From the sequence record PZ386969.1: a stretch of 64,000 nt of DNA. The stretch is one strand, 5' to 3'. Made by a program: the position numbers and the translations under genes. The notes beneath the pieces were generated by a model. That model did no database searches and was not told the DNA's origin. It saw only the letters and a program-made list of their open reading frames with translations. The stretch is from a phage. Shown here in pieces: positions 21,617 to 23,444 of this stretch; position 1 is the stretch's first letter, and each line of letters opens with the position of its first letter.

Positions 21617-23444
21617 CACAAAGAGGAGAGGACTTTTCAAATTAGCTTGGCTGTAGTAAAGTATTAAACACGAGGCGAATAGCGCGGTGGTAGTAGGGCT
21701 GGAACCCGAAACCAGGAAAGCCCAGTCTCAGGGCACCGTGACGAATAGAGGCGTAATATCAACCTCGCTGGTGTCGGTGGACGCACTGACCGTCGGAGAA
21801 CGAAACTCCCTGTTGTAGCGTGATTAGCTCAGAGAAGAGAGCGCCCCGTTGGCGAGTCGACACCAACACATAGGGGAGGTCGGGTCTGCCAAAATCCATC
21901 ACGCCGACAACATTATGAGTCTTCCATAGAGGGTTCATAATGTTGCGTCAAAGGGCAACACAAAGGTTCCTGTTGGTTGAATTAACTTGATTCATAGTTC
22001 CTACTGATCTTCCCGGATTCGAAGGATCACCAACAGGCGAGGCCGGATGCGTAAGTTCCGGTAAATCGATGGTGACGCCCTCGCAAACAAAAATAAAAGG
22101 TTTTATCAATAACGGGTTACAAAGTATAGTTAACCCACTGAACGGCAAGCTGTTTGAGTCCTGGCCACTCATAGTGTTGTGAGACCAAGACAGGTACGTT
22201 TAGGACTCAAACAGGTTTTCGTTTTCGTTGTGCGTGACTTTGCGGGTTTTTAGAAACTGACCAAGCAAATAACTGCTAATGATTCCGAAGTTCTGATGGC
22301 GGCGTAACAGCCTATAAGTCAGTGAGGTCTTCCGATTCCTCATCACCAAATTCGGCGCACTAAAATAGACGGGAGGGTGTGATTAATAAGCTCCCGTCGA
22401 CAATGCCGTTATATCTGACTGTCCAAAGGGGATAAGCTCCTGAGTAAGCAGAGGTGGGTTGCCTAAGTCAGATGGGATGTAAGGTCAGCGCTGGCCAAGC
22501 ATTTGGGTTCGACTCCTAAAAACGGCTCCACATCTTTGAGGATATTCTCACGAGTATCTTGAAAGATGTGAGCGAAGTCTTGCCATCAGCCCTGATCCCT
22601 GGCAGGTGAAGGGCACACAAATCGAAGTGCCTTGACAATTTATCTTAAACCCAAAGGTTGATCTACAAATTTGGGCGGCCAATCCGGTGGACGATAACAG
22701 CATATTGGGCCATACTGTTGAGTCAGGGCACTTCGATTTGTGAACTTTAGAGAGCATTGGGTGAAATAGACCATGCCTTGCAGATTGCGATGCCTACACA
22801 TTCCGGACACTGGTGGGCACCAAGAAGAACTCAGTAGCAGACGAGCCATCAGGGTTAGCTACCCGGCGCGGCGAGGACTGGGAGGCCGAACTAAGGGGAA
22901 ACCCGAGACAGGCGTAGTATTCTCAAGTTCACAAAATGAAGAGCATTTAAAGAGTTCGATTCTCTTTCAGGCCATTCGTGGTGTGATGTGAGTCATGAAT
23001 GTTCTTCATCTTTGGGTGATTCTATGTTGTCGGGCTATCAACCCATGCTTGCTGGAGCAACCAGCGGCTCTGAATCAACCAGCCAGCCTCGTTTGGTCCG
23101 AGCGTTAGAGGACAAGTTGCTTCTACATGGAAGCTGCGAGTTGCGACATTGGTTGCAACTTTGATGGCTCTGGATTTTATAAACCATGTCTATGGGTGAC
23201 GCGGGATCTTTAGTACCAGAGCTATCAAAGTTGTGTCCAACCCGATCTTACAAGCCCGTATCCCGGTCTGGTTAAGACTTGTAAGTGGAAAGCCCTGGAA
23301 AAATAAACGCCTGTGGCGAGGCTATGGTGCAAGCCAAAGACCCACAGAAGCGCGTTGCCGTGAGGCGCACAAACAGGCATGCATGAACTGATCATGCACA
23401 AACGGGATAAAGGGTTGACAGTCCTTGGTTGGTCACAATAATTT
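21617..23444. ncRNA. ORF-free hairpin-rich region, candidate structured non-coding RNA(s)
   Basis: 1.8 kb without ORF over 75 aa in a dense genome, GC similar to coding; perfect 13-bp and 16-bp long-range inverted repeats and several local hairpins. Confidence 0.35.

Follow-up and report, generated by a model that had tools for sequence, protein, structure and literature searches.

The segment at positions 21617-23444 of a 64,000-nucleotide (nt) stretch of phage DNA (sequence record PZ386969.1, hereafter the window) lies beside a tRNA cluster, and a preliminary description had proposed that it encodes one or more large structured RNAs. The source phage is a Kuttervirus-like member of the Ackermannviridae, the closest record being Enterobacter phage fGh-Ecl02 (96.7% identity). 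Our analysis indicates that the segment is almost certainly the upstream part of a ~3.1-kb array of separate structured RNAs on the + strand (21617-24663). One of these, at 22215-22402 (+), is very probably derived from transfer-messenger RNA (tmRNA), of which it represents the template half only, lacking the tRNA-like domain. On the strength of its complementarity to the tmRNA of the host, it seems probable that this module targets that molecule. The explanation that best fits the results as a whole, which we put forward tentatively, is an RNA array with a tmRNA-derived module that forms a hybrid two-piece tmRNA together with the host.

The preliminary description had rested on three properties of the segment, all of which held when examined. 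It had reported no open reading frame (ORF) above about 75 amino acids (aa), and the longest overlapping ORFs on the two strands indeed encode 74, 72, 69 and 69 aa; the ORF-poor stretch extends past 23444 to 24787, taking in four tRNAs. The G+C content, said to be coding-like, is 0.44-0.54 and close to that of the flanking genes. The density of hairpins was borne out by folding energies, since z-scores against dinucleotide shuffles were -3.0 for 21617-22530 and -5.2 for 22531-23444 (0 of 20 shuffles equalled the native sequence in either case), whereas a coding control of equal length (25600-26513) gave -0.36. In addition, five inverted repeats (I1-I5) with arms of 19-25 nt are found in the region. 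At the non-Watson-Crick positions of these repeats, the + strand shows eight G·U and no A·C oppositions. Because the stems show G·U and never A·C, we attribute them to RNA of the + strand rather than to DNA cruciforms or to RNA of the - strand. The four tRNAs, three extra T-arm motifs recovered in a strict scan and the terminator at 24635 all lie on the + strand as well.

The segment is conserved across the Ackermannviridae, and comparison with four relatives indicated that it does not encode protein. Mismatches by codon position in the flanking upstream gene were distributed as, for example, 13/6/54, whereas four sub-blocks of the region showed no third-position excess (17/19/12 and 31/33/34, for instance). 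The sub-blocks are 85-95% identical among relatives, yet carry many 1-nt indels. Given the lack of codon-position excess and the many indels at this level of identity, the sub-blocks are neither live nor recently degraded genes. Related genomes have the region unannotated or with scattered tiny ORFs only, and no intact genes were found at the equivalent place. The indels and the absence of third-position excess thus uphold the idea of non-coding structured RNA beside tRNA genes, and we reject the suggestion of degraded genes, even though one of the tRNA-like modules (22044-22092) does derive from a longer form by deletion. Alignment with related phages, which had been recommended as a check, revealed compensatory base changes in several stems, as described below. 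A covariance-model scan against Rfam 15, recommended with ornate RNA and intron families in mind, recovered the four tRNAs alone at gathering thresholds, and no relevant match appeared at E≤10.

When the region was mapped on seven relatives, blocks were present, absent, replaced or reordered, with sharp edges, for example at 22402/22403, 22547/22562 and 23137. Since block content is mosaic among relatives, the array appears to be built of independent modules. A single large ornate RNA, the favoured suggestion of the preliminary description, finds no support in this result or in the lack of an Rfam family at E≤10; its alternative of several small stable RNAs, as in the tRNA region of phage T4, is nearest to what is found. 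Besides the four true tRNAs, the array comprises modules of the long-stem hairpin type and tRNA-like RNAs that have T-arms and CCA-like ends; these lie on the same strand as the tRNAs, directly upstream of them and in the gaps between them. In fGh-Ecl02 (L001 2487-2690, compared with window 22360-22470) the cassette differs after 22359, and the pseudoknot stem is a different one. The inserted cassette (GACCAGCAAGACCATACAAC...) is also present in the T1-like phage DS8 and the N4-like phage PGN829.1, and its occurrence in all three therefore points to recent exchange between unrelated phages. Modules are traded as cassettes between phages. We also observed HNH homing endonuclease genes inside the homologous array of PMBT18, FrontPhageNews and 0507-KN2-1 (compare segB in the T4 tRNA cluster), and such enzymes could drive the mosaicism of the array.

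The module at 22215-22402 belongs to an unannotated family and includes the hairpin that the preliminary description had quoted as an example. In blastn searches with the whole region, unrelated phages matched over window ~22221-22389 only. A 201-nt query recovered homologues in 426 phage records. The carriers include Ackermannviridae (infecting Salmonella, Klebsiella, Escherichia, Serratia and Erwinia), T1-like siphoviruses, N4-like Schitoviridae, a Grimontviridae phage, the P22-like HK620, a Vibrio phage and lambdoid prophages, and the phage carriers comprise at least six unrelated groups. The module is present in 137 of 5426 complete Escherichia coli genomes (~2.5%), always on the chromosome, in prophages. 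A further 48 loci, of which 35 are unique, came from a motif scan of IMG/VR, and in a contig scan with the 16-mer AGATAAATGCAAACGA only Pseudocitrobacter faecalis was real among the matches listed, the others being due to chance. Its position is within tRNA clusters in the T1-like, N4-like and Vibrio phages. HK620 and the prophages carry it in an unannotated stretch of 0.8-1.1 kb between Q/pR' and the holin gene, in the prophages without exception.

Module structure and tag were analysed on an alignment of 36 sequences, in which 95.7% of alignment cells pair in the proposed structure compared with 34-48% in slid controls. At the centre of the module is a short reading frame at 22275-22307 (+), GCT AAT GAT TCC GAA GTT CTG ATG GCG GCG TAA, which would specify the degron-like peptide ANDSEVLMAA; for comparison, the host tag is ANDENYALAA. 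The family contains 19 haplotypes and 13 peptides, with ten codons followed by TAA throughout and no indels. Variation at codons 2, 7 and 10 is exclusively synonymous, as is that at codon 1 in 18 of the 19 haplotypes. Members conform to the pattern AN[DE]x-x-x-L-[MA]-[AV]-A, other examples being ANDDVVLMAA, ANEEMYLAVA, ANDEQFLAVA and ANDNTFLAVA. The alternative frames +1 and +2 are closed by stops in 20 of 20 and 16 of 20 sequences respectively. In Vibrio phage pYD38-A (L256 1185-1360) the tag stop is TAG, not TAA.

Upstream of the frame is a 21-nt A-rich linker (22254-22274, +) ending in AAUAACU, with U at -5 and A at -4 of the resume codon. Its length is 21 nt in 35 of 36 members, and likewise in the distant SE131, Bue1 and ECBP1, and the usual ending in the family is AUAAAU. 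The trinucleotide A-U-A occupies -6 to -4 in E. coli tmRNA (..AAUAGUC|GCA), in the family (..GAUAAAU|GCA) and in the window (..AAUAACU|GCU). In tmRNA the reading frame is set by the five nucleotides upstream of the resume codon (PMC3968760). Further upstream we found a 5-bp helix, CUUUG/CAAAG, which is 94% paired with one compensatory change, and no convincing counterpart of tmRNA pseudoknot 1 (PK1).

Covariation also supports a hairpin resembling tmRNA H5 around the last tag codons (22293-22322, +), with the UAA in its loop. Its outer helix shows exchange of A-U for G-C (21:15 sequences), and the inner helix is 90% paired. Two pseudoknots follow. Pseudoknot a (22323-22355, +) consists of the hairpin TGAGG/CCTCA at 22323-22342, in whose 10-nt loop CCGA (22332-22335) pairs with UCGG (22352-22355). 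In the stem, which is 99.4% paired, three pairs have both partners altered. The loop-linker helix pairs in all 36 sequences (100%), taking the forms CCGA/UCGG, CCAG/CUGG and CCAA/UUGG with two covarying pairs. Pseudoknot b (22356-22398, +) is of the H-type. Its stem S1, formed by CGCACU (22356-22361) and GGUGUG (22376-22381), is 100% paired with independent compensatory changes in L001, in L069 and again in pYD38-A. Stem S2, GACGGGAG (22368-22375) with CUCCCGUC (22391-22398) and loop L3 AUUAAUAAG, occurs as at least four unrelated sequences, all of which pair. This S2 is the hairpin quoted in the preliminary description: the hairpin is real, its coordinates are 22368-22398 rather than 22370-22400, and what was taken for its loop is not a loop, since the first six bases pair upstream and the hairpin becomes one stem of the pseudoknot. 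A helix resembling P2a (GCG.../...CGC) was also considered and was rejected because it clashes with the compensation-supported stem S1. SE131, Bue1 and ECBP1, with the tags ANDNAFRVAA, ANDNEFKVAA and ANDDVVLMAA, have a 3' domain of different sequence, which inspection suggests is built as a similar pseudoknot.

These features resemble those of one- and two-piece tmRNAs, namely a single-stranded A-rich linker with U-5/A-4, a resume codon for alanine, an AND...AA tag of ten codons followed by a stop codon within an H5-like hairpin, and pseudoknots after the tag. A free 3' end and fewer pseudoknots are shared in particular with the coding piece of two-piece tmRNAs (PMC3968760). Both of the Rfam models concerned align the linker and tag region, tmRNA_permuted scoring 19.8 bits in the window and up to 30.7 in homologues (gathering score 47) and beta_tmRNA 17-22 bits (gathering score 84). 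Unlike tmRNA, the module therefore falls below gathering thresholds, and a tRNA-like domain, helix H2 and a permuted acceptor piece are all missing from it.

With ARAGORN, neither the window nor any of six homologous loci yielded a tmRNA, and the module has no acceptor stem, G3:U70 pair, T-arm or CCA, a pseudoknot occupying the place where the T-arm is expected. In the T1-like phages a near-consensus promoter (TTGACA-17-TAGATT) ends 7 nt before the module, and because it abuts the module there is no room for a 5' acceptor strand. Three ways of restoring such a domain were considered and set aside. A one-piece tmRNA of 378 nt, pairing 5' GCUGUUU at 22148 with AAACGGC-U-CCA at 22520, is rejected because its 5' strand sits in a local 22-bp hairpin with covarying arms. 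A domain swap in the prophages, in which the 3' arm of an upstream hairpin and the 5' arm of a downstream one make an H2-like closure, is rejected because L089, whose hairpins have differing arms, shows only local complementarity. A two-piece model would need a phage acceptor piece complementary to GUUUUCG, and none of the loci contained such a partner; nor was any NCCA-tailed sequence complementary to the module 5' end found in ~50 loci. Each of the upstream tRNA-like modules possesses a 5' strand of its own, and they differ from phage to phage.

In place of these elements the module has a feature that no tmRNA has, an antisense domain of ~34 nt at its 5' end (22220-22253, +) complementary to nt 67-105 of host tmRNA. 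The ssrA gene of E. coli K-12 served as proxy for the host. Since RNAduplex with full-length molecules gave meaningless whole-molecule duplexes, domain-restricted runs were used. The window domain reached a free energy (ΔG) of -37.1 kcal/mol over 29 bp, compared with a mean of -20.0 (standard deviation 3.6) for its shuffles, of which 0 of 500 were as good, and -20.6 for pairing with its own linker and tag. Six representatives from five phage lineages (DS8-type, prophage, the source window, HK620, N4-like and IMG/VR contig L024) gave -33 to -38 kcal/mol with 28-29 bp in three blocks; shuffles averaged -15 to -20 (standard deviation ~3.3) with no match in 500, and pairing with their own linker and tag, at about -16 to -20, did not rise above this background. 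The blocks are GUUUUCGU with ACGAAAAC, GCGACU with AGUCGC, and UGCGGGUUUUUA with UAAAAAGCCGCA. They are constant, and the connecting loops (GA, CACGUUA, UUUUCGUUGUGC) are lineage-specific. Every one of the 36 members finds its best site on full-length tmRNA at nt ~67-107. Read against the ssrA sequence, the target takes in loop 3 and the 3' strand of PK1 and runs on through the linker and the resume codon to codons 2-5.

In 32 of 36 members, the stretch with the longest exact complementarity to E. coli tmRNA is the invariant (U)AGUUUUCGU(C), which faces tag codons 3-5. With nhmmer, module positions 8-38 aligned to the ssrA reverse complement and positions 52-100 to the sense strand. SE131, Bue1 and ECBP1 retain the antisense domain together with the 21-nt linker and tag, their 3' domain having been swapped. 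In pYD38-A the antisense domain reads GCGCU where enteric copies have GCGGG, a change that could track a difference in the tmRNA of the Vibrio host. An internal PK1, in which GUUUU pairs with a GAAAC loop, was considered for the same segment; both elements are invariant, and L060 has no GAAAC yet keeps GUUUUCGUC. Since L060 keeps GUUUUCGUC without GAAAC, a partner outside the module is favoured over an internal PK1.

A promoter-like site, ATCAAT-N14-TATAGT, was found by consensus scan at 22104-22130 (+), upstream of the tmRNA-like RNA, and is kept in all genera, LIMEstone1 included. It fits the Ackermannviridae motif TTCAAT-N14-TATAAT (PMC7283392), and we infer a promoter function for it. Between this site and the module lies the inverted repeat I4 (22141-22223, +), a 22-bp hairpin; the tmRNA-like RNA begins within its 3' arm. 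Its distal arms covary, being GAGUCCU/AGGACUC here and GGGCAC/GUGCUC in Vi01, KP6F1 and Ag3. Possibly I4 serves as a processing site for RNase III.

Taking tag, linker and complementarity together, it is conceivable, if somewhat doubtful, that the module anneals to host tmRNA and swaps in a phage tag template across many enterobacterial phages and prophages. The array would be transcribed from phage promoters, starting at 22104-22130 in the window, and then divided into units, with RNase III acting on the long stems and tRNA-processing enzymes on the tRNA-like neighbours. The freed ~190-nt RNA would anneal to host tmRNA, open PK1 stem 2 and mask the host resume site. The distance from the duplex to the phage resume codon would then be 21 nt; in native tmRNA, helix P3 and the host resume codon are separated by ~22 nt. 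In the resulting hybrid two-piece tmRNA, the host would give the alanine-charged tRNA-like domain and SmpB, and the phage would give the template. Rescue itself would be kept, with rescued proteins ending in ..L-M-A-A or ..L-A-V-A rather than ..A-L-A-A. The predicted phage tags would retain the N-terminal (A)AND and replace the C-terminal ALAA by LMAA, LAVA or LAAA. Since ClpX reads the terminal LAA of the tag (PMC3968760), which is changed in the phage tags, the fate of the tagged proteins may be altered. Natural two-piece tmRNAs with fewer pseudoknots function, and PK1 is replaceable by a simple helix (PMC3968760). In two-piece tmRNAs the coding piece is likewise held by base pairing alone and has a free 3' end.

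Several considerations weigh against this mechanism. Beyond the complementarity of the sequences, every step is an inference, and the complementarity itself was noticed post hoc and scored against the K-12 proxy. To our knowledge there is no precedent for the loading of a template tethered solely by base pairing near PK1. The ribosome could in principle still resume on the host codon by unwinding the interrupted 29-bp duplex. Part of the window antisense domain is sequestered in the 22-bp I4 hairpin until processing, one member of the family (L049) has a Glu codon at tag position 1, and the gain for the phage is speculative.

The remaining parts of the array are likewise on the + strand. Its first element, module A1 (21617-21875), is a multi-branched structured RNA with a ~60-nt core that is almost invariant across four genera. 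It is kept in Kuttervirus, Agtrevirus, Taipeivirus and Yersinia phage CAU_YEP3 (L134 3001-3255), a member of the Ackermannviridae in which it is the sole part of the array left. RNAalifold predicted a long-range helix, and one hairpin loop accommodates an insertion of 37 nt. One-nucleotide indels rule out coding, and A1 matches nothing in Rfam. Directly upstream of the array is a small ORF of 48 aa (21470-21616, +) encoding a very hydrophobic product (MFYMMLLLILLIGITF...); it is preceded by a ribosome-binding site, GGAAGGGAGGG, and annotated as a hypothetical protein in relatives. A1 is followed by a near-perfect long hairpin of ~19 bp (21905-21947), which is conserved in relatives and forms a minimum free energy domain with ΔG -19.5.

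The truncated tRNA-like module at 22044-22092 (GGCGAGG...CCCTCGC) has lost 51 nt including the T-arm. Relatives possess an intact 67-nt version (L003 2175-2241), annotated as tRNA-Ala in SeKF_19 and EP75, with the acceptor stem GGUGAGG/CCUCGCC and the T-arm GUGUGG-UUCGAUU-CCACAC. In place of the alanine identity pair it has the reverse, U3·G70, together with A73, and CCA is not encoded. Immediately downstream of the tmRNA-like module is M5 (22405-22530), a tRNA-like RNA of 126 nt with a 6-bp acceptor stem (GCCGUU/AACGGC) and two long arms. It has a canonical T-arm at 22503-22519, located by T-arm scan, and an encoded U-CCA 3' end; the consensus fold is cloverleaf-like, and the sequence is 88-94% conserved in Vi01 and KP6F1. 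A second non-canonical tRNA-like RNA or pseudo-tRNA at 24427-24578 has a T-arm at 24550-24566, the stem GGGCGUG/CGCGCUC and the tail U-CCCA, and Det7 has an annotated pseudo-tRNA at the equivalent place. Neither ARAGORN nor the Rfam tRNA model calls M5 or 24427-24578, whose bodies are 50-80 nt too long for a tRNA and have no recognisable anticodon arm.

Long hairpins make up much of the intervening sequence. The inverted repeat I5 (22529-22570) forms a 19-bp hairpin and a minimum free energy domain. In the long-stem module at 22616-22742 a 21-bp closing helix, which is repeat I2 with 95% complementarity, surrounds an 85-nt insert, and six pairs are changed on both sides among four sequences. 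The design is that of the constant-arm hairpins that we observed in prophage arrays. In lambdoid prophages (L127 2900-3360, L004 and many IMG/VR loci) hairpins with the constant arms GGUAAGAGCAUU...AGUGCUCUUUCC enclose hypervariable inserts of 30-90 nt. Often an added A gives a ..U-CCA end, and whole arms covary between variants. The same prophages contain a 126-nt tRNA-like RNA (UGUGGUG...T-arm...CGCCACA-A-CC) in the late leader between Q and the holin gene. In the window, an orphan T-arm, AAGAG-UUCGAUU-CUCUU (22950-22966), lies within the folded domain 22871-23092 and is probably the remnant of a tRNA-like module. The 25-bp hairpin I1 (23149-23240) has four pairs changed on both sides, mainly in KP6F1, and is kept in LIMEstone1.

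Four canonical tRNAs were called by ARAGORN and Rfam at 23445-24418, those for Met (23445), Asn (23693), Tyr (24026) and Ser (24330). The best sigma70-like match of the region, TTGACA-16-AATAAT (11/12) at 23415-23442, ends 3 nt before tRNA-Met; a promoter at this place would start transcription within the tRNA, the alternative being that the match has no such function. The inter-tRNA spacers (170-260 nt, within 23522-24329) are 79-97% conserved in Dickeya phage LIMEstone1 (L132), which is without three of the four tRNAs, yet retains the spacers. The spacers are probably further RNA modules. The end of the array is marked by a hairpin followed by a T run (24635-24663), identified by consensus scan, which resembles an intrinsic terminator.

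The main rival to template exchange is simple antisense inhibition. An RNA of this kind would anneal to tmRNA and block or destabilize it, for example through seed-dependent RNase E cleavage, and the tag-like part would be undecoded, acting as a mimic or decoy towards factors that recognize the template and pseudoknot part of tmRNA (S1, the secondary SmpB site, RNase R), or persisting as a relic. The antisense evidence serves such an inhibitor equally well, and no tRNA-like domain was found. Moreover the antisense motif occupies a place typical of seed regions: in T1-like phages it is found at or close to the predicted 5' end, 7 nt beyond TTGACA-17-TAGATT, and in prophages it directly follows the upstream ..UCCA end. 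Inhibition leaves unexplained, however, the conservation of the tag at the amino acid level, its fixed length and the closure of the alternative frames, and equally the invariant 21-nt linker in which the frame-setting U-5/A-4 are kept. Because an inhibitor has no ribosome reading frame, the constraint on tag and linker is hard to account for, and we judge pure inhibition unlikely. An improbable alternative is a self-sufficient derived phage tmRNA, the acceptor piece of which would be a neighbouring tRNA-like module such as 22405-22530 or the 67-nt "tRNA-Ala" of relatives. T-arm modules with N-CCA tails do flank the module in most arrays, the tmRNA model RF00023 gives a 20-bit local match to the end of one of them in an E. 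coli prophage, and complete phage tmRNAs, some of them two-piece, are known (PMC9004378). These neighbours nevertheless differ between phages and none lies upstream in the T1-like phages. None has G3:U70, U3·G70 occurring twice instead, and no NCCA-tailed complement of the module 5' end is present in any locus. The candidate long-range acceptor strand is taken by a local hairpin with covarying arms, and in the window the upstream tRNA-like gene is truncated whereas the tmRNA-like module is intact.

Other origins for the sequence would not involve tmRNA function. A role at the DNA level, as a replication or packaging site, a set of homing targets or a recombination scaffold, or else the decay of tRNA genes, would fit the HNH genes inside the array of some relatives, the mosaic modules, the truncated tRNA-like gene and the orphan T-arms. 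The occurrence of G·U without A·C makes the stems strand-specific, however, and the pseudoknots with their loop-linker covariation would be meaningless for DNA; the tag frame is conserved, the strict-scan T-arms, tRNAs and terminator share the + strand, and we consider these origins very improbable. That the 1.8 kb forms one large ornate RNA, or consists of recently degraded protein genes, is hardly credible in spite of the long ORF-free region and its strongly negative z-scores. Against the former stand the lack of an Rfam large-RNA match, the sub-blocks that come and go independently, the internal promoter-like sites and the single block common to unrelated phages; against the latter, the lack of codon periodicity, the many 1-nt indels and the relatives without intact genes. 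Finally, ssrA is a common site of prophage integration and prophage ssrA fragments have been reported (PMC9004378), from which it might be argued that the module is a functionless piece of host ssrA left by imprecise excision. This is scarcely conceivable, as the similarity to E. coli ssrA is marginal (2-4 bits) and lies over the tag region rather than the 3' end used in integration, the element occurs in strictly lytic phage groups and is under structural and coding constraint, and excision could not produce the antisense copy inside the module.

Among known systems, the closest positional analogues of the module are the T4 species 1 and 2 RNAs (rnaC and rnaD), which are likewise small stable non-tRNA RNAs, co-oriented with the tRNAs of a phage cluster and abutting them. 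T4 rnaC has a T-arm, and a homing endonuclease gene is found in the same cluster. At maximum sensitivity, nhmmer found no homology to the module in the T4 tRNA region containing rnaC and rnaD, and no tag frame or antisense relation to tmRNA was seen in these RNAs. We know of no function for either. Within the segment that encodes rnaC and rnaD (L133 1909-2172, minus strand), the species 1 RNA contains CUUAAUAACC, a sequence shared exactly with the stop region of E. coli tmRNA, directly ahead of a canonical T-arm; the species 2 RNA ends ...GGCGCACCA. The trans-acting regulatory RNAs of E. coli prophages comprise AgvB and AsxR, which act against small RNAs (sRNAs), and the Pas sRNAs (bioRxiv 10.64898/2026.05.13.724894). 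They are similar to the module in lying in the lambdoid late region near Q and holin and in pairing with host RNAs. They differ in that they have other sequences, are confined to pathogenic E. coli, contain no tmRNA-like template and target mRNAs or sRNAs, not tmRNA. Identity of the module with a Pas/STnc100 sRNA was rejected, since PasD groups with STnc100, which Rfam would have flagged.

Complete tmRNAs have been found with ARAGORN in 402 of 18,146 phage genomes, an example being the two-piece ssrA of the OM43 phage Melnitz (PMC9004378). Like the module, they are phage genes tied to trans-translation and often lie near tRNA genes (PMC9004378); unlike it, they have a tRNA-like domain and are detected by ARAGORN, neither of which applies to the module family. 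Neither Rfam 15 nor the literature searched, in which few subscription journals were covered, yielded a tmRNA-like RNA without a tRNA-like domain or an anti-tmRNA RNA. On these subjects and on tmRNA in the Ackermannviridae the same literature yielded only citations of ARAGORN and the complete phage tmRNAs.

Overall, the array joins RNAs of two known kinds, a tmRNA-derived RNA and the stable RNAs of tRNA clusters, and a template swap, if true, would be a new mechanism. The tmRNA-SmpB system is the universal bacterial pathway of ribosome rescue, and some phages, lambda-P22 hybrids among them, depend on it. The resemblance of the module to tmRNA and its complementarity to that of the host suggest that many unrelated phages tamper with this pathway. 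The module is present in more than 400 sequenced phages, including phage-therapy candidates directed at Salmonella, Klebsiella and E. coli, at places where annotation pipelines record nothing or call spurious small ORFs. Phage tRNA regions and the lambdoid late leaders between Q and holin thus emerge as cassette arrays of structured RNAs, mostly without assigned roles. If our interpretation of the tmRNA-like module is correct, it would be the first viral factor aimed at the template of tmRNA and would provide a natural case of a trans-assembled tmRNA.

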